64,000 nucleotides of DNA from Blastocatellia bacterium (GTDB lineage Bacteria; Acidobacteriota; Blastocatellia; RBC074), in assembly GCA_016789725.1 (NCBI GenBank), contig JAEUQN010000011.1, forward strand, positions 1,102 through 65,101. Reading direction: 5' to 3'. Every line of letters starts with the position of its first letter. Position 1 is the stretch's first letter. Shown here piece by piece: positions 50,218 through 64,000 of the stretch. Under the pieces are notes generated by a model. It searched no databases and was not told where the DNA came from. It saw only the letters and a program-made list of their open reading frames with translations. The position numbers and the translations under genes were made by a program.

Positions 50218-51597
50218 GTGAGCAACCCAACCAATGTTTTGATTTTAGCTGCGGGCCTTGGTACGCGCATGAAAAGCGAGCAAGCCAAAGTCCTGCACAA
50301 ACTCGGCGGGCAGCCGTTAATTGCCCATGTTCTTCGCCGTGCGATTGCTTTAAATCCCGAAAAAATGATTGTTGTCACCGGCTATCAGGCTGAGGCTGTT
50401 GAAGCCGCTGCCCGCGTCGCACTCGCGCCCGAGATGGCTGAGCGATTGGTGTTTGTGCGACAAACGGAGCAACGCGGTACAGGGCACGCTGTGATGTGTG
50501 CGCGGGAGGTTTTGAAAAATGCCAAGGGATCATTGATTGTCAGTTACGGCGATGCTCCTTTGGTCAAATCTGCGACCCTGCAAAAGCTCAAAGCGGCACA
50601 CGAAGCAGGGAAGCACGCGGCCACGCTCATTACCATCAAGATGGAAATCCCGCCTGCCTATGGTCGTATCATCCGCGATAGCGAAGGCCAATTCGTCAAA
50701 ATCGTCGAGGATAAAGATTGCACACCTGAGCAAAAAGCCGTCAAAGAAGTGAATCCCGGCTTTTACTGTTTTGATATTCCGTCGTTGCTGCCAGCGCTGG
50801 ATCGGCTGACGACGAAGAATGCCCAAGGTGAATATTACCTGACCGACGTGCCGGAAATTCTGCGCACCGATGGCAAATCCGTTGGCACTGTTTTGCACGA
50901 TGATGACCTGGAACTACAGGGCTTCAACAATCGCGCCGAAATTGCCCTTGGGTGGAAACGTCTGCGCCATGAAATTTTGGAGCGATTGATGGCTGAAGGC
51001 GTGACCATCGTTGATCCCGATTCGACCTACATTGACGCCGAGGTTGAAATCGGACGCGACACGACAATTCACCCACAAGTGATTATTGAAGGAGCGTCGC
51101 GCATTGGCAGCTATTGCGAAATCCATTCGTGGTCACACCTGACGAACGTCGAAATCGGCGACAATTGCACGGTCAATAATTCGTGCGTGATCGAAGACAG
51201 CAAACTCACCGCAAATAACACGGTCGGCCCATTCGCACGGTTACGGATGCATGCCGTGCTGGATGATTCCGCCGTCGTTGGCAATTTCGTCGAACTCAAG
51301 AAATCCAAACTCGGTCGCAAATCGAAATCCATGCACCTGACCTATTTGGGCGATGCCACGATTGGCGAGCGCGTCAACATTGGCGCAGCGACCGTGACGT
51401 GCAATTACGACGGCAAAAACAAACACCAAACCATCATCGAAGACGATGTCAAAATCGGCTCCGACACGATGCTGGTTGCTCCCGTCAAAGTCGGACGCGG
51501 CGCAATGTCCGGCGCCGGTTCGGTGATTATCGAAGACGTGCCGGAAGACACGCTAGTCGCAGGCGTTCCGGCGAAAGTGAAGAAGAAATTGAAATAA
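50218..51597 (+). CDS. glmU: bifunctional UDP-GlcNAc diphosphorylase / GlcN-1-P acetyltransferase
   Basis: [13 protein letters not shown] motif, followed by a left-handed beta-helix hexapeptide C-terminus. GTG start. Confidence 0.92.
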
Positions 51598-51687: not shown

Positions 51688-53556
51688 ATGTGTGGAATTG
51701 TTGGATACGTCGGACATCAACAGGTCGTAGATGTTGTCATCGAAGGCTTACGCAAACTGGAATATCGTGGCTATGACTCCGCCGGAATCGCCGTCATCAA
51801 TCGCGAAGGCGAAATGCAGGTGCGCCGCGCCGAAGGCAAATTGCGCAACCTCGAAAACGTCCTCGCCAAAAATCCGATTGAAGGCGATTACGGCTTAGGT
51901 CACACGCGCTGGGCTACGCACGGACGACCGACCGAAGAGAACGCGCACCCGCATCGTTCCAGTGATGGCCGCATTTGCGTCGTGCATAACGGCATCATCG
52001 AAAACTATCTGGAACTCAAACGCGAGTTGCAAAAGCAGGATCATCGCTTCCAGTCCGAAACCGACACCGAAGTCGTCGCGCACCTGATCGAAAAGCATTT
52101 GCGCCAAAATCCCGACCTCGGTCTGGAAGGCGCATTCCGCGCAACGCTCAAGGAAATTCGCGGCATCTACGCGCTCGTAGCGATTTCTGCCGACGAACCG
52201 AACAAGCTTTGCGCCGCGCGTTTAGGCCCGCCCGTCGTCGTCGGCCTTGGCGAAGACGAATACTTCGTCGCGTCGGACATCCCCGCGATTCTCGAACACA
52301 CGCGCAACATGTTTTTCCTCGGCGACGGCGAAATGGCGACGCTCACGCGCGAAGGCGTAAAAGTCGAAGACGCCAGCGGCAAGCCCGTCAATCCAAACGT
52401 CCAACGCATCAACTGGGATCCGATTCAGGCGGAAAAAGGCGGCTTCAAGCATTTCATGCTCAAGGAAATTTATGAGCAACCGCGCGCCGTCCGCGACACG
52501 ACACAGAACCGCGTTTCGCTCGACACTGGCCACGTTTATCTGGACGAAATCAACATTCCCGCCGCCTATTTCCGCAGCTTCAGCGACATCAAAATCGCAG
52601 CTTGCGGAACGGCGTGGCATGCGGCGTTGGTCGCCAAATATTTGATCGAAGAACTCGCGCGCGTCCCGGTCGAAGTGGATTACGCTTCGGAATTCCGCTA
52701 TCGCAATCCGATCCTGACGCCGAGCACGTTGATGATGGTGATTTCGCAATCCGGCGAAACCGCCGACACGCTCGCCGCCTTGCGCGAAGCCAAAGAAAAA
52801 GCCTGCCGTTCGATTGCGATTTGCAACGTGCAAGGCTCAATGATGACGCGCGAAGCCGACGGCACAATCTACACGCACGCTGGGCCGGAAATCGGCGTCG
52901 CTTCGACGAAAGCCTTTACGTCGCAAATGGTCGCGGCCTATCTGTTCGCGCTCTACCTCGCGCAGGAACGCAAAACGCTTAGCGAAGAACAATTGCAATG
53001 GCACGTGCGGCATTTATCCGAACTGCCCGTGAAGATGGAAAAGCTGCTCAACGATCCGAGCATTGATTATGAAGACCTGTCGAAACACTTCGTCCTATCG
53101 AGCGATTTTCTGTATTTGGGACGCGGCATCAACTTCCCGATTGCGCTCGAAGGCGCATTAAAGCTGAAAGAAATTTCCTACATCCACGCCGAAGGCTACG
53201 CCGCCGGAGAAATGAAGCACGGCCCGAACGCGCTAATTGATTCGCGTCTGCCCGTTGTCGTCATCAACACGCTGGATTCCGACGACGAAAAATCAAAACT
53301 GCGCTACGAAAAAACCCTCTCGAACATTCAAGAAGTCCGCGCCCGCGACGGCATCGTCGTTGCGATTGTGACAGAGGGCGATCAAGACACGCGCGACATG
53401 GCTTCGTTCACCATTGAAGTCCCACCGTCGAGCGAATTACTCTCGCCCGTGCTGTCCACGATTCCGATGCAGTTGCTGGCCTATCACATCGCCGTGCGCC
53501 GAGGCTGCGACGTGGATCAGCCAAGGAATTTGGCGAAGAGTGTGACGGTGGAATAG
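51688..53556 (+). CDS. glmS: glutamine--fructose-6-phosphate aminotransferase
   Basis: MCGIVGY N-terminus, two SIS domains, C-terminal [15 protein letters not shown]. Confidence 0.96.
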
Positions 53557-53583: not shown

Positions 53584-53650
53584 TGTATGGGGAAAATAAA
53601 GTCGTACAACGAGAAATAAAGTCGTACAACGAGAAATAAAGTTGTACAAA
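53584..53650 (+). repeat. Tn7R-like end: terminal TGTATGG plus three abutting 20-bp direct repeats (putative TnsB binding sites)
   Basis: GGAAAATAAAGTCGTACAAC (53591-53610), GAGAAATAAAGTCGTACAAC (53611-53630), GAGAAATAAAGTTGTACAAA (53631-53650). Confidence 0.85.
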
Positions 53651-53669
53651 CCTAGATCGTTTCATAGAA

Positions 53670-53702
53670 TGCCCCTGGCCTATTTGGGTCAGGGGCATTT
53701 TT
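53670..53702 (+). terminator. terminator-like hairpin inside the transposon end, abutting the tnsA ATG
   Basis: TGCCCCTG (53670-53677) / CAGGGGCA (53690-53697) followed by TTTTT, then ATG at 53703. The only SD-like AGGGG lies in the 3' arm. Confidence 0.55.
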
Positions 53703-54545
53703 ATGAAGAAAAGTCGTTACGCTTGGGATGAAGCCAAATACAAGAGGTTTCTGAAGAAAGAAGGCCGTGGTCAAGGAACCGGGCAAGATTATCGTCCTTG
53801 GTTAGCAATCTATGACGTTTCCTCTACAGGTCGTGTGCATAGAATAAAGGGGTGGAAAACAAACCGGACGCATCATCTGCTATCCGATCAAGAAAGAAAT
53901 TTCTTTTATTTGCTTGAGTGGTCAGATTCGGTCATTGATGTCAGAGAACAATTCCCCCTCGATTTAGACGAAACCCAACTAATAGCTAAAGATATGGGAA
54001 TCAAGCACCCAGCGGATCAATCAAGTGGGTTTCCTTGGGTTTTTACCACTGATTTTCTCATTACAGTTCGTAATCAAAATCAAATCTCACAAATTGCAAG
54101 GACAGTTAAGCCCTCAGATTTTTTAGAAAAAGATCGAATCATCGAAAAGTTTGAGTTGGAAAGACGTTATTGGGTTTCCAGAGGTATTGATTGGGGGATC
54201 GTCACAGAAAAAGACCTGCCACAGGTACTTGTAACAAATATTGGGTTTATACACGGAGACTATTGGCTTGAGGCTACAAGTGAAACAAGTGCTGTCGAAA
54301 TGCTGGCTTTAGTAGATTCGTTCAAATTACGGCTACTGAACTATACAGGAACGGTACATCATTTTACAGATGCCTTTGATATAGACTTTAACCTGAAAGC
54401 TGGAACCGCCCTACGATTGCTAAAATATCTGATTGCAAAGAAACAAGTCACTGTAGATATGAATGAAAAGATAAAATTTACAAAATCAGTTCAATCACTT
54501 ATTTGCCAGGATGTCCGATCTCAATATAAGGCTCGTATTGCTTGA
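53703..54545 (+). CDS. tnsA: Tn7 transposition protein TnsA (endonuclease subunit)
   Basis: Collinear with Tn7 TnsA: EGRGQGTGQDYRPWL, HHLLSDQE, LEWSDSVIDVREQFPL (E), TTDFLI (D), RTVKP (K), ELERRYW. Confidence 0.92.
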   Translation: MKKSRYAWDEAKYKRFLKKEGRGQGTGQDYRPWLAIYDVSSTGRVHRIKGWKTNRTHHLLSDQERNFFYLLEWSDSVIDVREQFPLDLDETQLIAKDMGIKHPADQSSGFPWVFTTDFLITVRNQNQISQIARTVKPSDFLEKDRIIEKFELERRYWVSRGIDWGIVTEKDLPQVLVTNIGFIHGDYWLEATSETSAVEMLALVDSFKLRLLNYTGTVHHFTDAFDIDFNLKAGTALRLLKYLIAKKQVTVDMNEKIKFTKSVQSLICQDVRSQYKARIA

Positions 54546-56731
54546 TCATTATGATTGCTGTCAATTCACTTCTGAAAATTAAAGAGGGCAGTGTCCACCT
54601 CTCTGTTGTCCGGGTGTTATGGGTAGATGAATTAAATGATGAGGGGTGGGTTATCAATGTAATAGAAGATAAGGGGGTTCCTTATCTGATGTCTCTTTCT
54701 GCCTTGAAAACAAACATCGCTAACGAAGCTATCGAGTTAATGAAGGAAGACCCTTGGGCTCCAATTGTTGGGGATGAGACGCTTACAACAAAACAGCGAG
54801 AACTCAGAGATAAAGGTTGGTCGGCTATAGAAGGGCTTGTCAAACCTGAGCTTGAGCCACAAATATTCCAAAAAGATTTCCGTGGAGAGTTAATCAAGAA
54901 AGCAGCCGAAAAAAGTGAACTAGAAATAAAAACAATTTACAAATACCTACGCAAATTCTGGCAAAGAGGCAAGGTTCAGAATGCACTGATTCCTGATTTT
55001 TTTAATTGCGGAGGAAAAGGAAAAAACAAAAGTGACGGGGCAAAGAAAAGAGGGAGACCGAGAAAGTTTGGTAACGATCCTGAGATTGGTGAAGGAATAA
55101 ACATTAACGAAGAGATCAGGAGAATCTTTCATACGGCACTCAAAAGATTTTATCTAAATGAGAAAGAAACGCCTTTGCCCGTAGTCTATGATTTGATGGT
55201 AGGGGAATATTTTGTAGACAAGCTTATCTATGAAAATGGGCAGGCTAAAACAGTACTCGTTCCCGATAGTGAAAAGCCTTCTTATGGGCAATTCAAGTAT
55301 TGGGCCAGCCAAATTATTTCACCCGAAACAGCCCAAAAGGCGCGCAAGGGCGGTATTGCTTATGATAGAGAAAACAGGGCGCATCTTGGCAGTTCAACAG
55401 GTGAGGTATATGGGCCAGGCGAAAGATGTCAGATTGATGCCACAGTAGCAGATATATACCTAGTTTCTCGCTATAACAGAAAATGGGTCATTGGCAGACC
55501 TGTAATATATGTAATCATAGATGTTTTCAGCCGCCTTATTGTTGGAATTTATGTAGGGCTTGAAGGGCCTTCATGGTTGGGCGCAATGATGGCTATCTGC
55601 AACGCCGCTAGAGATAAGTTTTCTTTCTGTCAGGAGTATAAGGTTCCTATGGATGCGGCTAAATGGCCTTGTGCAGGGCTTCCGCAGATATTGCTGAGCG
55701 ATGGAGGGGAAGTAAAAAGTCGGAAGGCAGATCCTATTGTTAGGAATCTTGGTGTTCACCTTGAGGCGGCAAAAGCCTACGCCCCCGATTGGAAAGGAAT
55801 TATTGAAAGACATTTCCGTACTATTCAAGAGAAAGTAAAGCCATTTGTTCCTGGTTATGTTGAAAAAGACGCGCTGAAAAGAGTGGGAAACGCTTATCGC
55901 TTGGATGCCAAGTTGGACATTTTTAAATTCACACAAATTATCATTCAGTGCGTGTTACAACACAATTCTAGCTACCTCCCTACTTATCCAAGGGATGAAC
56001 AGATGATAGCTGATGATGTTTCTCCTATACCACTGCATTTATGGGACTGGGGAATTAGAAATCGGTCGGGGTCGCTGAAGTATTTTCCTGAAGAAATCGT
56101 CAAGTTAAACTTGATGCCAGTTGGAATGGCAAATATAACATCGCGTGGCATCCTTTTTGAAAAAATGAGGTATAGCTGCGAACGAGCTATACGTGAGCAG
56201 TGGTTTGATCGAGCAAGTATTAAGGGAAATCAAAAAATTGAGATTTCATACGATCCGAGGACAACAAACTATGTGTATTTGAAGTCTTCTGATGGTAGAA
56301 GCTATGAAACTTGCTATTTGCTTGACCCTGACAATAGGTACTCTAATAAAGACATATATGAAATTACATACTTACATCAGTATGAAGAATATATGAAGCA
56401 GCGAAATAGAGGAGCGAAGCAGCAAGAAAACGTAAATCTTTATGGATATATTAAGCAAAAAGTTCAAGAAGCTGAAAATCAAGCAAATTTGGTTTCTGCC
56501 ATTCCTGAGTCTAAAAAGAACGTTTTGAATATTCGAGAAAATCGTGAGCAAGAAAAAGCGGAGTTACGCAAAGAACAAGTTTTTGACCTTTCTCCAGTTG
56601 CAAATAATACTAAAGAAACAACGGGAACCATGTTTTCGCCTGAAAGAGCAAGGGACATTCAAGAGCGAGCGTCGCCTGACTTTCTAAATTTATTAAAGCA
56701 AAAGCGAAAAGAGATAAAAGATGGAGAGTAA
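54542..56731 (+). CDS. tnsB: Tn7 transposase TnsB (DDE)
   Basis: DDE triad candidates CQIDATVADIYL, ILLSDGGE and WKGIIERHFRT. TTG 54542 overlaps the tnsA stop (alternative ATG 54551). Confidence 0.9.
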   Translation: MIIMIAVNSLLKIKEGSVHLSVVRVLWVDELNDEGWVINVIEDKGVPYLMSLSALKTNIANEAIELMKEDPWAPIVGDETLTTKQRELRDKGWSAIEGLVKPELEPQIFQKDFRGELIKKAAEKSELEIKTIYKYLRKFWQRGKVQNALIPDFFNCGGKGKNKSDGAKKRGRPRKFGNDPEIGEGININEEIRRIFHTALKRFYLNEKETPLPVVYDLMVGEYFVDKLIYENGQAKTVLVPDSEKPSYGQFKYWASQIISPETAQKARKGGIAYDRENRAHLGSSTGEVYGPGERCQIDATVADIYLVSRYNRKWVIGRPVIYVIIDVFSRLIVGIYVGLEGPSWLGAMMAICNAARDKFSFCQEYKVPMDAAKWPCAGLPQILLSDGGEVKSRKADPIVRNLGVHLEAAKAYAPDWKGIIERHFRTIQEKVKPFVPGYVEKDALKRVGNAYRLDAKLDIFKFTQIIIQCVLQHNSSYLPTYPRDEQMIADDVSPIPLHLWDWGIRNRSGSLKYFPEEIVKLNLMPVGMANITSRGILFEKMRYSCERAIREQWFDRASIKGNQKIEISYDPRTTNYVYLKSSDGRSYETCYLLDPDNRYSNKDIYEITYLHQYEEYMKQRNRGAKQQENVNLYGYIKQKVQEAENQANLVSAIPESKKNVLNIRENREQEKAELRKEQVFDLSPVANNTKETTGTMFSPERARDIQERASPDFLNLLKQKRKEIKDGE

Positions 56732-58418
56732 TCTTTCTGACTCACTTATTAACTATATTGCCAAGATAGCAGAATATCGTGACCCACTTCTTCGTGACTA
56801 CAGGGGTAACCCTATGATCGAAGCTCTTCCACCGATCTTGAGCAAAGATGAGTTTGTTAAAAAGGTTAGCTCGTATCCCACATTTGATGAAACCGAAAAA
56901 CTATTGCCTGCTGAAATCAGGATGCACTGTGTTTACAGGCTCACACGATATTTTCAACCGTTAGATCGGCATATTATATTAGAGCAGAAACTCACACAGC
57001 TTATTAGACAAGGCTATATTGCTCGAAATCCGTTGGATCCCAAGTTTGCATTACGCTTGAGACAAATTGGAGAGGTGTTGAGCCAAGCTATACAACGAAA
57101 AGAGCTACCTATTAATGAAATTGTGGATGTACAGTCATCCGCGAATAGTTATACTTTAATCGGTATTTCAGGTTTGGGAAAAACTACTGCTGTAGAAAGA
57201 ATTTTGCGACTGTACCCCCAAGTAATCCTTCATGGTGAATATAAAGGCATACCGCTTAATTTCTACCAGGTCGTATGGGTCAAGGTTGAGTGTCCACATG
57301 CAGGAAGCCTGAAAGACATCTGTGGAGATTTCTTCAAGGAGATTGATGATCTGTTAGGAACACCCTATTACAAAAAATTTGGCGACCCTCGGATTACCGA
57401 ATATGTAATGCTCGCACACATGTGTTTGATTGCAATTAGACATGGAGTAGGTGCGATAGTAATTGATGAACTTCAAAACTTAAGCCTTGCCAAAAGCGGG
57501 GGGGCAGAGGCGGCCATGAATTTCTTTGTAAAGATGGTCAATAAAATTGGCGTACCTGTTATCAGAATTGGTACCAATAAGGTAAAGGATATTTTACAAG
57601 TTGACTTCAGACATGCAAGAAGATCTATTGGAGACTACTGGGATCGTTTTAAATTAGACAACGAATATGACATGGCGCTGTGGGATTTTCTAATCGAAGA
57701 ATTATTCTCTTATCAATGGACACAGGAAAAAGCGACGCTGACAACAGAGATCAAAGAGGCTCTCTATGATGAAAGCCAAGGCATTATTGATATTGGAATT
57801 AAACTTTATATGATGGCGCAATGGCGGGCCATTTTATTTGATCGAGATCAGATTTCTGCTGAAGATATCAGGCTCGTTGCCAGAGATGGTCTGAAAATGG
57901 TTCAACCGATGATCCAAGCCCTTCGCTTAAATGATCTCAAACAACTCGAAAAATATGATGACATCAAATCTTTAGATATAAAGTCATATTACGAAGAGTA
58001 TATTGACGACATCAAGATTTCACATACCAAGAAGATTGAGAAGGCCAAAAAGGCTATTACGGTATCTGCCTTAGACTCCCTCAATTCTCTTATAATAGGC
58101 TTGGTTGATTTGGGAATCACACCAACATTGGCCAAAAAACACGCTGGTCTAGTTTGGGCTGGAAGGGATGAGATTGAGACTATGGAAGAATTACTGGGGA
58201 AAGCTTACAAAGCAGCCTTAATTGACAGCGGCGGTACAGCGCAATCCCCAAAAGACTCTTCAAAAAAGAAGCCCCTCTCACAAATTGATTTCCCTAACGA
58301 CATCAGACAAATAGTTACAAAAGGCCGTGACCAAAAACTATCTGCCTATGATGCATTAAAACATGGCGGATTTATTAAATCCCCGGTGAAGGACTTCCTG
58401 GATGAAAAAGCCGCGTGA
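56721..58418 (+). CDS. tnsC: Tn7 AAA+ regulator TnsC
   Basis: Walker A GISGLGKTT and Walker B AIVIDELQNL. Overlaps the tnsB stop by 11 nt. Confidence 0.9.
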   Translation: MESNLSDSLINYIAKIAEYRDPLLRDYRGNPMIEALPPILSKDEFVKKVSSYPTFDETEKLLPAEIRMHCVYRLTRYFQPLDRHIILEQKLTQLIRQGYIARNPLDPKFALRLRQIGEVLSQAIQRKELPINEIVDVQSSANSYTLIGISGLGKTTAVERILRLYPQVILHGEYKGIPLNFYQVVWVKVECPHAGSLKDICGDFFKEIDDLLGTPYYKKFGDPRITEYVMLAHMCLIAIRHGVGAIVIDELQNLSLAKSGGAEAAMNFFVKMVNKIGVPVIRIGTNKVKDILQVDFRHARRSIGDYWDRFKLDNEYDMALWDFLIEELFSYQWTQEKATLTTEIKEALYDESQGIIDIGIKLYMMAQWRAILFDRDQISAEDIRLVARDGLKMVQPMIQALRLNDLKQLEKYDDIKSLDIKSYYEEYIDDIKISHTKKIEKAKKAITVSALDSLNSLIIGLVDLGITPTLAKKHAGLVWAGRDEIETMEELLGKAYKAALIDSGGTAQSPKDSSKKKPLSQIDFPNDIRQIVTKGRDQKLSAYDALKHGGFIKSPVKDFLDEKAA

Positions 58419-60331
58419 GATTGACTTTCTTCCCCACCCCGTATCCGGATGAATTACTGTACAGCGCGCTTGCCCGCTATCATTTGCGTAGTGGAAATCT
58501 CAGCGCCAAAGAAACCCTTCAAGAATTATTTGGCTCTACCACTGTCATAGCAACTATTGATCTTCCCTCGCATCTTGATTCCTTAATCGCGCGCCTTCCG
58601 CCTCTTGCCAGTTTTTCTTCAGAGGGACTAATTTGCAACCATACGCTCCTTCCCTACTACGCTCCATTTTTGAAGCCAGAGATTGTGGCCCAGATCAAGC
58701 AATCGATGAAGGGGCATCAGTGGGGCGACATCCACACTCGGTGTGGAATTGTTGCAAGCAGCATCAATCGCCCAATGTATTTACGATTTTGCCTTGTCTG
58801 TTTTCAGGCCGATGTAAAGACCTTTGGCGAACCATACTGGCATCGTGTTCACCAACTTCCTGGCGTACTCATCTGCCCGACACATGAGGCATTGCTTCAC
58901 AACAGCACAATCCGTGTTTTAGGTAGAAATCGGCACGAATTTGTGGCAGCGGATTCCAGATGTTGCATTCCCAAACCACAAGCAGTTTCAGTCAAGGCTG
59001 CCACTTGGGGCAAACTTCTGGTTCTGGCGCAAGATTCAGCCGCGCTTCTGAAACATGCTTTCCCTATTAAGGGATCGCACTGGTTTCGGCAGCAATATGG
59101 CGCGCTGTTAATTGACCGGAAATTAGCGAATGTTTCAGGGCGCGTGCGGCAAAAAGATTTCCGGGATCAATTCCGACAATTTTACGGAGATGAATTGTTA
59201 CGCTTGGTCAATTCAGAACTTGAAACCGACAAAGATATTGATTGGCTTGCCAGCATTGTGCGCAAACATCGCAAAGCATTCCACCCGCTACGACATTTAC
59301 TCTTGCTTCAGTTTTTTGATCTGACACCGGAGATACTTTGGAACTCGGTGTTTACATCTCAACCCTTTGGAATCGGCCCGTGGGCTTGCTTCAATGGCGC
59401 GGCCAATCATTACCGTGAGTGCGTCATTACCAAGTTCACCATTTCCTGGTCAGCAGATACAAAACGTCCGCTGGGGCATTTTGTTTGCGCTTGTGGATTT
59501 GGCTATACGACCAGCGATCCCAAAGTTGCAGGAGGCTTGTCTTTAAAGCCGCTCCGTGTAAAATCCTTTGGGCCAACCTGGGAAAATAAGCTGAAACAAT
59601 TGACAGAGAAAACGCTGGGCTTGAGAGAGACAGCAAGGCAGATGAAAGTAGACCCGAAAACGGTTTTACATCAATGCCAGCGTCTGGGCCTATCGTTAGG
59701 TAAAAATCAGGTTATTGAGCAGAAACAAAGTGCCACGACTCACAGTGATTCCATTGAGGTACTTCAGGCTACAACGCGGGATCGAAGAAAAGAATGGCAA
59801 GAATTGTGTGTGCAATTTCCGCAGGCATCAGTAACAGAGCTGAGACGAAAGGCCCCCGCCCTTTGGACTTGGTTGTACCGACATGAAAAAGACTGGTTGC
59901 GACAGAACGTTCCTGCTCCAATTCGCCAAGCCCCACAGGTCAAAAGAGTAGATTGGCAAGTACGAGATCAGCAAACCGCCACTGAAGTGCAAGCTGTCAT
60001 ACAACAAATTCTGGCAACAGTCCCCTTGCAGCGTGTCACCAAAAGTCGGATTGGCAAAAAGATAGGAAGGCTCGCATTACTTGAGCGGTTATTGGACAAG
60101 TTGCCGCGAACGAAATCACTACTGGAAAAGCGTTGTGAATCCCCTGCGCAGTACCGAATTCGTCGTATCCGATGGGCAGTTCAGCAGCTTCTTCGCCAAA
60201 ACTCCGCCGTTCGAGTTTGGGAAGTTGTTCGGCTTGCGCGTTTACGAAAAGAATACGCTACTCAACTCGAAACATTTATCCAGAGAGAAATTAAACGTTC
60301 CGTAACCTCACTGCGCGAACAGGCAAAGTGA
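58415..60331 (+). CDS. tnsD: TnsD/TniQ-family target selector
   Basis: TniQ N-terminus FFPTPYPDELLYSALARYH. CCCH zinc finger CLVCF...ICPTH. GTGA overlap with the tnsC stop. Confidence 0.88.
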   Translation: MRLTFFPTPYPDELLYSALARYHLRSGNLSAKETLQELFGSTTVIATIDLPSHLDSLIARLPPLASFSSEGLICNHTLLPYYAPFLKPEIVAQIKQSMKGHQWGDIHTRCGIVASSINRPMYLRFCLVCFQADVKTFGEPYWHRVHQLPGVLICPTHEALLHNSTIRVLGRNRHEFVAADSRCCIPKPQAVSVKAATWGKLLVLAQDSAALLKHAFPIKGSHWFRQQYGALLIDRKLANVSGRVRQKDFRDQFRQFYGDELLRLVNSELETDKDIDWLASIVRKHRKAFHPLRHLLLLQFFDLTPEILWNSVFTSQPFGIGPWACFNGAANHYRECVITKFTISWSADTKRPLGHFVCACGFGYTTSDPKVAGGLSLKPLRVKSFGPTWENKLKQLTEKTLGLRETARQMKVDPKTVLHQCQRLGLSLGKNQVIEQKQSATTHSDSIEVLQATTRDRRKEWQELCVQFPQASVTELRRKAPALWTWLYRHEKDWLRQNVPAPIRQAPQVKRVDWQVRDQQTATEVQAVIQQILATVPLQRVTKSRIGKKIGRLALLERLLDKLPRTKSLLEKRCESPAQYRIRRIRWAVQQLLRQNSAVRVWEVVRLARLRKEYATQLETFIQREIKRSVTSLREQAK

Positions 60332-60335
60332 GATT

Positions 60336-62009
60336 GTGGAAATACTAAAAGTAAAGCCGTGGCCTTTTGATAAAAATGAGCCTGCTACGCTGAATTGGAT
60401 ACTATCCCCTATACGCAAGATTAGTGGATACGAAGTCATTGCTATATTCAAAACCCTTTTCACCGGTAAACTAGAACGAGTTCCGCTCCCCTTGGGCATA
60501 TTGCCCGCCCTGAGAATTGGCCGGGTATATATTGATGGAAAATTAGCAGACCAAATCCCCCAACCACAAAAACTCGATATTCCCAATATAAGAAATGGCA
60601 CACTGGTAGACGGCTTCAAAATGCCGCCTTCTCTCTATAGCCTCCTAGAGCAACGATCATCTTGCGAGGAAAACCTGTGGCGCTTTGAATTGAATGCCAA
60701 TACATATTTTCTTCCTTGCCTGGAAATGATCAGAGCGTTTTTCATTCACACGAAAACACTGGCAAATAAAATTCTTATACCCAATGGTTTGGACACATTA
60801 ATCGGCGATGAAGAGATCAAGGGAAACGAGTTGATCCTACATTTGGATGAAACATTCCCTCTCAATTTGCTAAAAACTAAGGAAATGGAAGCAGCGCACC
60901 TCAATCATTTGATCTGGCTGAGACATAATCCTTCAGCACGTATGGCTTGGGAGTTTGTTGCCCGCAAATTATATGCTCAAGCGATTAAGAACAATCCATT
61001 CGATTTGTTTCAGGCATTAAGCGAGCGAATTCCTTTACAAGTTATCCCGCCTTTTGCTGAATCGCTCAGGATGGAGTTCACCAGCGTTTCGCACGGAAAT
61101 CAACATCTGGTTTTAGAAATCTTAGGATTTGAAGAAACGACACCTCTGCCCTTTGATCGAGTTAGTTATACGCACCCTCGGCTTGAAGAGCCTCGAAAAA
61201 CCACCGTTACGAAAATCCGCAAGATTCCGATTGAAGTAGGAGAAGAAATTGAATTGGACACTTCTGGCCTTCCAGCCAAAAATGAATCAAACCCAACAAT
61301 CGTGAAAACGCCTGCCGTTGAATTCCGGCTCTTACATTTCGTTCCACTGAAAAGAATTTATCAGAAGCGACCGGATGACAATTCTCCCAAGAGAATCACA
61401 GTAGCGGAGGAAACGCCCGTGTCCTCGGTTGTTAGAAGCGCCAATCCAACCGTTTATGGTGGCCTGCATAACCCGCTCGAGTTTGCAGGACTAACAGCAC
61501 CTGCCCCCGACCTTCCCGACTATCAAGAAAAAGGACTAAATCAATTTCTTACGGCGGTGAATGTATTGGCTTCTCACTACCAGCAAGAGTTGATGGTCTA
61601 TCCTTTCATTGGAGAATTGGCCTATGACAAATCGTTCTCGAAAGACGAGCAAAATCACCAGCGAAAATATGCTTGGGTGAGCATTCAATCGCGCCAATCA
61701 ACCGCACATTGTTTTATCCTCGAACTGGCACGAGTCGAAGGGCGACAAATTGCAACGCTATTCATCAAAGCGCCTCAAAAAGTTTCCAGCCCGCTACAAG
61801 AAAAACTGACTGAATCTTTGAATAAAAATAATGGGCATTTTAACCCTGACAACTTTTCATGCGATTTAGCAGAAAAAGTGGAAACACTTCGGCATTCCAG
61901 TTTGGGCGTAAAAGAAGGGGAAAGCGAGAAACGAAGGGCTTGGCGTGAGATTTATCACTGGGCAAATAGGATGGCTTCTGTGCTAGAGAACCTGAGATTC
62001 AAGATATGA
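60336..62009 (+). CDS. fifth tns-operon protein, probable distant TnsE-like target selector
   Basis: 557 aa. GTG lies 4 nt after the tnsD stop. No TniQ or NTPase motifs. NTYFLPCLEMIRAFFI at residues about 122-137 resembles the clamp-binding motif recalled at TnsE 121-131. Confidence 0.55.
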   Translation: MEILKVKPWPFDKNEPATLNWILSPIRKISGYEVIAIFKTLFTGKLERVPLPLGILPALRIGRVYIDGKLADQIPQPQKLDIPNIRNGTLVDGFKMPPSLYSLLEQRSSCEENLWRFELNANTYFLPCLEMIRAFFIHTKTLANKILIPNGLDTLIGDEEIKGNELILHLDETFPLNLLKTKEMEAAHLNHLIWLRHNPSARMAWEFVARKLYAQAIKNNPFDLFQALSERIPLQVIPPFAESLRMEFTSVSHGNQHLVLEILGFEETTPLPFDRVSYTHPRLEEPRKTTVTKIRKIPIEVGEEIELDTSGLPAKNESNPTIVKTPAVEFRLLHFVPLKRIYQKRPDDNSPKRITVAEETPVSSVVRSANPTVYGGLHNPLEFAGLTAPAPDLPDYQEKGLNQFLTAVNVLASHYQQELMVYPFIGELAYDKSFSKDEQNHQRKYAWVSIQSRQSTAHCFILELARVEGRQIATLFIKAPQKVSSPLQEKLTESLNKNNGHFNPDNFSCDLAEKVETLRHSSLGVKEGESEKRRAWREIYHWANRMASVLENLRFKI

Positions 62010-62078: not shown

Positions 62079-63587
62079 CTAAAGATTGCGGCTAAACAAG
62101 CGTCTTTGCAAAGAAGCGGATTCGAGGTCATCTGAAACAGTAGGAGTTTCTTGTCGCTCTGGCTTCAACCTGGCGGCGGCTTTTTTCTTTGGCAGATTGG
62201 CCGGCGATCCTCGGTCATTACGAATACGTTCCAGCAAGGCCACAGCCGGTTCATAGTCGCGCCCTTCTCGTCGCGCCAATGCCGCTTCGGTCGGCACGAG
62301 TTCGCCGCGAAAGGCTTTCGCTAAAATGGATTGTTGCAACTTGTCCACCTGCCCTTTGGCGCGTTGGTAGCGGGCTTCCAATTGGTCGGCCAGTTGAAAC
62401 ATTGCTTCGATGCGACGGACGAGTTCTTGTTGCTCAGCGAGTGGCGGTACTGGCGTAGGAAAATTCTTGATATCTCTCACATTGAGGTGTGGTGATGCGC
62501 TTCCACCTGTCAATTCTCTAACTTGTGTAAGTATTTCTGGGCTGTTTAGCCAGTACATCAAAAACGAGGATGAATAAGAATGATTCGTTCGCATTAACAT
62601 CATTCGCTGCCCTAAACATAACTTTACGTTTGATGGGATAATGCAAGCAATTCCTAAAATCCCTCCTTCTCGACTATACAAAACATCGCCCGGCATAGGG
62701 GTAAGCCTTTCAATTCTACGTTGATAGGTTTCCTCAGAAACAAATCTGACTTCAGTAAGATCAAGAAACCCAGGCTTGAAATTTGTAGTTCGGACGCAAA
62801 TATGACCAGAATCTGCCCACTTAGGCGTCGAATGAGGGCAATCAACAACAGCCTCACAAATTGATTCGAGCGAACACCACTGCCAAGTTTCAGGGATTTC
62901 AAAAAGAGATGTTGCCGTCTCTTGCTTATTCTCTTTTTGAAATCGTTCCTCATTCTCTGAATACTTATTACGCCAATCAACCGTCAATTCTCCCGAACAC
63001 GCCGCCGCCAGCACGGCCTGCCGAAAGCGTTTGAGGATCACGGGAATTTTCGCCAGTCGTTGCTGACAAGCTTCCACTTTGCCGAGCAGCGTTTCCAGCC
63101 TGGCTACGATGCGGCGTTGTTCGGCGAGAGGAGGTAAAGTAAAGATTAGTCCTGATAGTTTTGTCGCGTTGCAATTAGGCTGAGCCGAACCTGAGATATT
63201 TTCAGAAATCTGATCCCAATATGATTTTGATTGGAAGAAACAAGCAAGGAACTCAGGCAAAACGCTTAAAGAAGGTCTGACTCGAATCAGATAAGAAGCG
63301 AAGACCGTCACAGGGCAAGACTTGATAAGAAAACTCTTTCCGGTAGTTGCTCCGGTTCTGGCAAATACGAGATCTCCCGGCGTTAATTCATAGTTTGAGA
63401 TTTTGTTTTCAGGAATCGCACAGTATGGAACGGTTTCCCAATTGACAGAACCATTTTGAATATCAGTTATCCTGAGATACTTTGGCCCCTTCGGCTCCTG
63501 AATCGCGCTGGCAGTGTATCCATAGCTTATATTATCAGAGACTTGCCCAACATTAGCCTCACCCCATCCTTCAGGCAATTGACTCAT
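62079..63587 (-). CDS. hsdS: type I restriction-modification specificity subunit HsdS
   Basis: Two target-recognition domains, each followed by a conserved coiled-coil repeat (PPLAEQRRIVARLETLL... and PPLAEQQELVRRIEAMF...AKAFRGELV). Confidence 0.9.
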   Translation of the reverse strand: MSQLPEGWGEANVGQVSDNISYGYTASAIQEPKGPKYLRITDIQNGSVNWETVPYCAIPENKISNYELTPGDLVFARTGATTGKSFLIKSCPVTVFASYLIRVRPSLSVLPEFLACFFQSKSYWDQISENISGSAQPNCNATKLSGLIFTLPPLAEQRRIVARLETLLGKVEACQQRLAKIPVILKRFRQAVLAAACSGELTVDWRNKYSENEERFQKENKQETATSLFEIPETWQWCSLESICEAVVDCPHSTPKWADSGHICVRTTNFKPGFLDLTEVRFVSEETYQRRIERLTPMPGDVLYSREGGILGIACIIPSNVKLCLGQRMMLMRTNHSYSSSFLMYWLNSPEILTQVRELTGGSASPHLNVRDIKNFPTPVPPLAEQQELVRRIEAMFQLADQLEARYQRAKGQVDKLQQSILAKAFRGELVPTEAALARREGRDYEPAVALLERIRNDRGSPANLPKKKAAARLKPERQETPTVSDDLESASLQRRLFSRNL

Positions 63588-64000
63588 GCAGCAACGCCCT
63601 CTTCTTTCTCAATCAACGCAATGATCTCGCGCAAATCATCCACCACAGCTTCGAGTTCGGTGATGGCTTCGCTCGCCAAATCCTGCGGCTCTGGCAAAGT
63701 GTCAGCATCTTCCAGCGATTCATCCTTGAGAATTGGAATATCAAGTTTGTAATCACGAGCTTTGATTTCGCTGATATGAAACTTGCGGAAGCGGGTGCCT
63801 TCTCCTAAATCTGCGCGCTCGCTCCTGCCGTTCGGGTCTGCGCCGTAGCATTTTTCAAAATCGGCAAAATGTTCATCTGACAACGGGCGTTCTTTTTTCG
63901 TCACGCCCGGCACGTTGGAGCGTCCGTCATAAATCCAAACGTTTTCGGTCGGGAAGCCTTTCTGCAAAAAGATGACGTTGGCTTTGACGCCCTGGCTGTA
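63584..64000 (-). CDS. hsdM: type I R-M methyltransferase HsdM, C-terminal part (5' end outside the window)
   Basis: FLQKGFPTENVWIYDGRSNVPGVTKKERPL... typical HsdM C-terminus. The frame stays open to the window edge. The stop overlaps the hsdS start (ATGA-type overlap). Confidence 0.85.
   Translation of the reverse strand, partial: YSQGVKANVIFLQKGFPTENVWIYDGRSNVPGVTKKERPLSDEHFADFEKCYGADPNGRSERADLGEGTRFRKFHISEIKARDYKLDIPILKDESLEDADTLPEPQDLASEAITELEAVVDDLREIIALIEKEEGVAA

Follow-up and report, generated by a model that had tools for sequence, protein, structure and literature searches.

We analyzed a 64,000-nucleotide stretch of contig JAEUQN010000011.1 from a Blastocatellia bacterium (hereafter the window), in which an array of transposition genes lies downstream of glmU (50218-51597, + strand) and glmS (51688-53556, +). 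On the same strand follow tnsA (53703..54545; 280 amino acids, aa), tnsB (54542..56731; 729 aa), tnsC (56721..58418; 565 aa), which encodes the AAA+ adaptor, and tnsD (58415..60331; 638 aa), which encodes the selector of the attTn7 site at glmS. Pfam gave clear matches for glmU, glmS, tnsA (Tn7_TnsA-like_N with an expectation value, E, of 7e-20, and Tn7_Tnp_TnsA_C; 38% identity to Tn7 TnsA), tnsC (AAA_22 and TniB; phmmer against Tn7 TnsC, E 1e-83) and tnsD (TnsD, E 6e-103; TniQ, E 2e-27); the exception is tnsB, with a weak match to Mu-transpos_C and a phmmer match to Tn7 TnsB at E 6e-113. The fifth gene of the array, ORF5 (60336..62009, +; 557 aa, GTG start), is the subject of this analysis. 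We find that its product is homologous to Tn7 TnsE over the full length and has the two domains of that protein in the same arrangement, and we put the probability at roughly 0.85 that ORF5 is tnsE, encoding a divergent target selector, the second of its transposon and independent of TnsD, in a Tn7-like element of five genes (tnsABCDE) located at attTn7 downstream of glmS.

A first-pass annotation of the DNA had described a 557-aa reading frame lying 4 nt after tnsD on the same strand, with a size and position that fit TnsE. The coordinates and the gap proved correct: the tnsD stop codon, TGA (60329-60331), and the start of ORF5 are separated by exactly four nucleotides, GATT, and the product compares in length with the 538 aa of Tn7 TnsE, which is likewise encoded by the fifth gene, after tnsABCD. 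The remark that ORF5 shares the low GC content of tnsD holds only roughly, the values being 0.441 for ORF5, 0.484 for tnsD and 0.40 for tnsABC, with 0.56 for glmS. The position of the start is supported by three orthologues, which have GTG at the same aligned position too, and from the adjacency of this start and the tnsD stop we predict that ORF5 is translationally coupled to tnsD. Comparison with two orthologues gave a ratio of nonsynonymous to synonymous substitution rates (dN/dS) of 0.14-0.18 at dS 0.6-1.1, and this purifying selection shows that ORF5 is a genuine gene, as opposed to a reading frame arisen by chance.

Searched alone, ORF5 found nothing significant in Pfam (its sole match, DUF6829 at E 0.006, is below the cut-off), no match in NCBIfam and, with phmmer, no match among the PDB sequences. 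The silence of NCBIfam is uninformative, since this collection is without any TnsE model, even for the canonical Tn7 TnsE. Only four close homologues, with 72-80% identity, were recovered by a word-indexed protein search across 5.8 billion clusters, and the only named one, from a Blastocatellia metagenome-assembled genome (MAG), is labelled “hypothetical protein”; a profile of these five close sequences hit PgpB in the PDB at E 0.25, which we dismissed as a chance match. An exhaustive HMMER search with the same five sequences as query yielded 307 representative clusters at E<=0.001, nearly all of them 500-580 aa long and matched near end-to-end, and 75 of these make up the family alignment to which all counts out of 75 given below refer. 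The Pfam model TnsE_C (PF18623) matches 40 of these 75 relatives, the remaining 35 failing at E 0.001, and other families match none of them. A tblastn search of plasmids matched genes that bear the annotation “Tn7-like element transposition protein TnsE” in Exiguobacterium, in Bacillus cereus and on enterobacterial plasmids; BLASTP aligned ORF5 to the Exiguobacterium TnsE (WP_214813959.1) over residues 4-479 at E 1e-21 with 25% identity, and this Exiguobacterium protein itself matches TnsE_C at E 7e-13.

Profile comparison links the family to TnsE over its whole length. The 75-sequence profile matched the TnsE C-terminal domain in the PDB (5d16/5d17) at E 1.4e-7, and hhalign of this profile against full-length Tn7 TnsE, for which the copy on plasmid R721 (L007:7972-9585) served as the canonical reference, gave a probability of 99.6% and E 3.3e-24 over 494 columns, pairing profile positions 20-535 with residues 8-533 at an identity of ~15% between ORF5 and Tn7 TnsE. 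The predicted structure agrees. The AlphaFold2 model built on the 75-sequence alignment reached a predicted local distance difference test (pLDDT) score of 90.9 and a predicted template modelling (pTM) score of 0.76, and was used instead of a model built on a 5-sequence alignment, for which pLDDT was only 37.6. Searched against the PDB with Foldseek, it returned seven significant matches, all of them TnsE C-terminal domains (5d16, 5d17, 9d5l), with a probability of 1.00 and target template modelling scores of 0.64-0.72; with the eighth-ranked match the probability drops to 0.18. The C-terminal domain (approximately residues 396-557; 61521..62006, +), delimited by Foldseek and the family profile, is thus predicted to have the TnsE_C fold, a five-stranded antiparallel sheet with helices as in 5D16, 5D17 and 9D5L, and by homology would be a duplex-DNA-binding domain. 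For the N-terminal ~390 residues Foldseek found no relative among the solved PDB structures, as is to be expected because no N-terminal TnsE structure has been solved (PMC12153342); EF-P/eIF5A and the WGR domain of PARP2, which came up as fold relatives of this part with Foldseek probabilities <=0.35, were dismissed.

For residue-level comparison with Tn7 TnsE we used correspondences from hmmalign to the family hidden Markov model (HMM), which agree with those of hmmsearch and hhalign; mafft --add shifted Tn7 TnsE by two residues within the C-terminal domain, and its alignment was not used. In the N-terminal part, the segment NTYFLPCLEMIRAFFI at residues 122-137 had been likened in the first-pass annotation to the sliding-clamp-binding motif of TnsE, and both hhalign and hmmalign do place it on the Tn7 motif. 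The putative clamp-motif segment, PCLEMIRAFFI (residues 127-137; 60714..60746, +), stands opposite PQLELARSLFL, residues 121-131 of Tn7 TnsE; in a longer alignment, YFLPCLEMIRAFFI of ORF5 (124-137) pairs with YHIPQLELARSLFL of Tn7 (118-131). The Tn7 motif had been given as PQLELARALFL, for which the place, 121-131, is right and the Ala at 128 is not, the R721 copy having Ser. The two proteins share the pattern P-x-L-E-x-x-R-x-x-F (P127=P121, L129=L123, E130=E124, R133=R127 and F136=F130, ORF5 first), and within the family P127 is found in 72/75 members, E130 in 75/75 and R133 in 71/75. We would describe the clamp motif as present in ORF5 at the level of sequence conservation only.

In the C-terminal domain, the stretch CFILELARVEGRQIATLFIK, which had been noted as resembling a C-terminal region of TnsE, falls on the homologous Tn7 segment: by alignment its residues, 459-478, correspond to the DNA-binding switch formed by beta3, the V-loop and beta4. 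Within it the V-loop region E463-T474 (61722..61757, +; from the last part of beta3 through the V-loop into the first part of beta4) is equivalent in the HMM alignments to Tn7 E450-T462, and is one residue shorter. Residues shared with Tn7 TnsE are E463 (E450; family-invariant), G469 (G456), T474 (T462), K497 (K486), H520 (H510; family-invariant), W542 (W527) and R545 (R530), and H510 contacts the DNA backbone in structure 9D5L (PMC12153342). The D455-R432 salt bridge of Tn7 TnsE is highly conserved and functionally important (PMC4678854), and its positions are retained as E468 with R443. F502 takes the place of Tn7 W491, where 71/75 members have W, and R519 that of N509. By alignment, then, the V-loop switch with its salt bridge is present, with two changes: the toggle position, A453 in Tn7, is R466 in ORF5, with Arg there in 61/75 family members, and K458 is replaced by Gln (Q471). 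At the toggle, A453V/T is known to alter the activity of Tn7 TnsE (PMC4678854). In the clade of ORF5, moreover, 13 additional residues, rich in K, R and E, are inserted in the stretch leading from beta5 to the last helix (alpha5); gain-of-activity mutations of Tn7 cluster in the beta5-alpha5 loop (PMC4678854).

Between the two domains, the regions DR1 (270-307) and DR2 (332-379) of Tn7 TnsE are reported to be disordered (PMC12153342), whereas the equivalent regions of ORF5 (residues 284-392) are predicted to be ordered, residues 291-307 and 352-368 forming long beta strands with pLDDT values of 81-94. The close homologues differ very little in these regions, and an L-x-L-D / A-K motif at residues 305-315 is conserved and common to Tn7, which has LQLD.

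In a survey of where the relatives lie, scans with a 13-sequence alignment gave 12 loci in genomes and 8 in metagenomes, of which 10 and 8, respectively, have enough flanking DNA to be informative, and tnsD adjoins the TnsE homologue in every one of these 18, mostly within a full glmS-tnsABCD array; the homologue P0004 lies in the same glmU-glmS-tnsABCD-ORF5 array as in the window. The hosts that could be named are Blastocatellia and Pyrinomonadales/Pyrinomonadaceae (Acidobacteriota) and Bacillota MAGs. From the profile and structural matches, the adjacency to tnsD in 18 loci and the dN/dS of 0.14-0.18, we conclude that ORF5 is a divergent TnsE, predicted to be functional, and not a new selector. 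The first-pass annotation had left the choice between a very distant TnsE and a different second target selector, to be settled by profile-profile search, by structure prediction with Foldseek and by asking whether homologues are confined to the vicinity of tnsD; all three come out on the side of the distant TnsE, and neither a match to an unrelated family nor homologues outside Tn7-like elements, which it had named as grounds for abandoning that identification, came to light.

The role we propose for ORF5 is carried over by homology from work on Tn7, in which TnsE steers the transposon to DNA undergoing replication, above all to plasmids arriving by conjugation (PMC12153342, PMC4678854). By analogy, the C-terminal domain would bind duplex DNA without sequence specificity by way of the V-loop switch, while the N-terminal domain would read a 3'-recessed end or single-stranded part and contact the beta clamp; the TnsE complex would then recruit TnsC and after it TnsAB, and the element would insert into lagging-strand replication structures, by preference on conjugating plasmids. 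In such a scheme the TnsE route would serve horizontal spread, and TnsD would provide a safe chromosomal site.

A number of observations count against assigning this identity and role to ORF5. No direct match to TnsE_C is seen even at E<=10, and pairwise phmmer gives no direct link to Tn7 TnsE, so that the homology rests on profiles and fold; the TnsE_C miss reflects the limited sensitivity of that Pfam model and is no contrary result, because the C-terminal fold and the V-loop are both matched. The Gln of the Tn7 clamp motif is Cys in ORF5, as it is in 53/75 relatives, and in the model the clamp segment forms the end of a strand and a helix with pLDDT ~98, well packed and unlike a flexible peptide; the conservation of the segment could therefore have a structural cause. 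Non-basic residues stand at several DNA-contact or groove positions (K417->Y430, R420->D431, R422->S433, K512->S522, R533->S548 and K458->Q471), with ~2-3 kept of the seven basic residues K417, R420, R422, K486, K512, R530 and R533; K432, between D431 and S433, and the K/R-rich insert lie near the positions that were lost. Furthermore, the sole insertion visible in the window is of the TnsD type, at glmS. The chief reservation about this reading is that the substitutions in ORF5 may alter its regulation or its target.

These substitutions could be taken as signs of a protein that descends from TnsE but has drifted in its targeting, one which would still recruit TnsC and would recognise another DNA structure or another host factor, for example with no dependence on the clamp or with a switch that is constitutively “on”. 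The Arg at a toggle position where A453V/T changes Tn7 activity (PMC4678854), the V-loop shortened by one residue and lacking K458, the few groove residues kept, the Cys in the clamp motif, the ordered and highly conserved equivalents of DR1 and DR2, and the insert placed where gain-of-activity mutations cluster can all be read in this way. However, both domains are full length and keep their invariant core residues, the position in the operon is unchanged, and at 15% identity such changes are to be expected without any necessary effect on mechanism; we consider drifted targeting unlikely. It could be argued that ORF5 is decaying or has lost its function and persists as a relic in the operon, given the mere four close homologues among 5.8 billion clusters and one related locus (L009) in which tnsD is interrupted, but this is highly improbable for a gene that is intact and full length, with no frameshifts or stops found, that shows the dN/dS given above, that retains the family-invariant residues and whose start is coupled to the tnsD stop.

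Equally hard to credit is a second target selector unrelated to TnsE that merely occupies the TnsE position. An identity of ~15% to Tn7 TnsE and the failure of the single sequence to match Pfam, NCBIfam or the PDB directly would suit such a protein, but it should not then align with Tn7 TnsE across the full length at 99.6% in hhalign, nor should its family profile match the solved TnsE C-terminal domain, Foldseek return TnsE C-terminal domains only, and PF18623 recognise 40 of its 75 aligned relatives, and on this evidence we reject a novel selector of this kind. Selectors of the TnsD/TniQ type are encoded in the same operon and pass the target to TnsC, as we propose for ORF5; unlike them, ORF5 has no TniQ domain by Pfam, in keeping with the earlier observation that it is without a TniQ zinc finger, and it is not a second TniQ, since the TniQ/TnsD protein of the element is the product of the preceding gene.

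As a copy of TnsE, ORF5 is strongly diverged. Tn7 TnsE (Escherichia coli, R721; C-terminal domain structures 5D16/5D17, with 9D5L being the Thiopseudomonas alkaliphila protein with DNA) shows collinear homology to ORF5 throughout, with the same V-loop fold in its C-terminal domain; it differs by the low identity, undetected by pairwise search or PF18623, by the features of toggle, V-loop, clamp motif, groove, insert and inter-domain regions described above, and by its host, which belongs to the Gammaproteobacteria, whereas that of ORF5 is probably one of the Acidobacteriota. The closest annotated relatives are TnsE proteins from Bacillota, encoded on plasmid p1 of Exiguobacterium acetylicum (WP_214813959.1) and on Bacillus cereus plasmids. 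These have in common with ORF5 the W-P-F-D N-terminus, a YFLPxxExxR segment and the V-loop LLEVERxGRxxSTL with its toggle Arg, but the Exiguobacterium protein is detected by PF18623 whereas ORF5 is not, and the clade of ORF5 is set apart by its C-terminal insert and by Phe for the near-invariant Trp at 502.

We therefore regard ORF5 as a member of the known TnsE family from a divergent and poorly annotated clade, a member of a kind already anticipated: Benler et al. (2021), who used PF18623 for detection, considered the spread of tnsE to be probably underestimated on account of its weak conservation, and they found Tn7-like elements in only four species of Acidobacteria (PMC8649781). ORF5 is a concrete example: it belongs to a complete Tn7-like element with all five genes, in which neither Pfam nor NCBIfam detects tnsE. 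Since 35 of the 75 aligned relatives are missed by PF18623 and NCBIfam is without a TnsE model, surveys built on these resources will under-count tnsE. The residues that survive at ~15% identity (P127, E130, R133, R443, E463, T474 and H520) are candidates for an essential TnsE core. The gain lies in better annotation and a broader profile; knowledge of Tn7 targeting is unchanged.

Comparison of the whole operon with related loci suggests that its parts do not share one history. Against the locus L003 (3346-11668), identities are 95% for GlmS, 53% for TnsA, 50% for TnsB, 57% for TnsC, 68% for TnsD and 76% for TnsE; against L026, L010 and L011, whose hosts have a GlmS with 67% identity, the figures are 51-52% for TnsA, 44-51% for TnsB, 43-48% for TnsC, 44-47% for TnsD and 30-39% for TnsE. 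The GlmS of the window is 67% identical to that of Pyrinomonadaceae and 45-50% to that of Bacillota, and the similarity of GlmS and TnsE to proteins of named MAGs makes a Blastocatellia-like acidobacterium the probable host. TnsA and TnsB are thus equally distant from L003 and from the other three, whereas for TnsD and TnsE L003 is by far the nearer relative, and TnsE is the fastest-evolving protein in every comparison other than that with L003. The right-end repeats of the window and of L003 differ, and GC content at third codon positions rises from 0.34-0.39 in tnsABC to 0.43-0.46 in tnsDE, with the step between tnsC (0.39) and tnsD (0.46). The operon therefore appears to be a mosaic in which tnsD-tnsE has a history different from that of tnsAB; the identities, the repeat difference and the GC step together point to a selector module exchanged between elements, and suggest that it comprised tnsD-tnsE, perhaps with the part of tnsC from about residue 80. 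A more far-reaching proposal, which we offer tentatively and think rather unlikely, is that the TnsE clade of Acidobacteriota and Bacillota is a mechanistic variant, marked by the toggle Arg, the short V-loop, basic residues distributed differently over the surface and an inter-domain region structured as beta strands, which could bind DNA in a state that is constitutively “on” or read another replication or repair intermediate, and that tnsD-tnsE is an exchangeable cassette recombining onto unrelated tnsAB cores (identity to L003 being 68-76% for TnsD/E and 50-53% for TnsA/B).

The right end of the element (53584..53649, +) begins with the terminal TGT at 53584-53586, 28 bp past the glmS stop (53556), and contains three direct repeats in 20-bp units, with the core AAATAAAGTCGTACAA at 53594, 53614 and 53634 (through 53649), which are presumed TnsB-binding sites. 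No opposite-strand copy of these repeats, that is, no inverted TnsB repeat (TTGTACGACTTTATTT), occurs anywhere in the window, which places the left end beyond 64000. Just inside the right end, folding revealed a strong RNA hairpin at 53660-53708 (-32.5 kcal/mol, z -6.5) with a U-run at its end, which a simple terminator scan did not call; Rfam had no match anywhere in the window. The hairpin encloses the ribosome-binding site and AUG (53703) of tnsA, and a sequence resembling a sigma-70 promoter, TGTACA-16-TAGAAT (53643-53670), partly coincides with the third TnsB-site repeat and is so placed that a transcript from it would begin within the 5' arm of the hairpin. Judged from its layout, this arrangement could insulate tnsA from glmS read-through and permit TnsB-autoregulated expression.

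At the other side of the operon, and convergent with tnsE, the first cargo gene (62079..63587, -; 502 aa) encodes an HsdS-like specificity subunit of a type I restriction-modification system (Pfam Methylase_S, E 2e-24; NCBIfam PRK09737, E 4e-77, which is below its cut-off). Next comes only a fragment of an N6 methylase, 127 aa long (63584-63967, -), that matches the C-terminal part of the family (N6_Mtase, E 2e-5); the hsdM gene may be broken or continue in another frame, and the region reaches the edge of the window.

Some of the related loci depart from the common arrangement. In two loci of Clostridia type (L019:6261-13789 and L027:6333-13861) the gene for the TnsE homologue lies on the opposite strand to tnsABCD, with its 3' end facing that of tnsD. 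The interrupted tnsD mentioned above (L009:5018-8281) is matched in two pieces ~1.2 kb apart, which could reflect an insertion or an assembly problem, and in L013:8388-8974 and L014:7992-8995 a gap of 0.6-1.0 kb between tnsD and the TnsE homologue could leave room for an extra small gene. Finally, a Bacillota element with a TnsE of the same clade (L012:627-1979) does not lie beside glmS and has a gene for an AAA_21 (AbiEii-type) ATPase upstream of tnsA, which could represent a non-attTn7 insertion or a tandem island.

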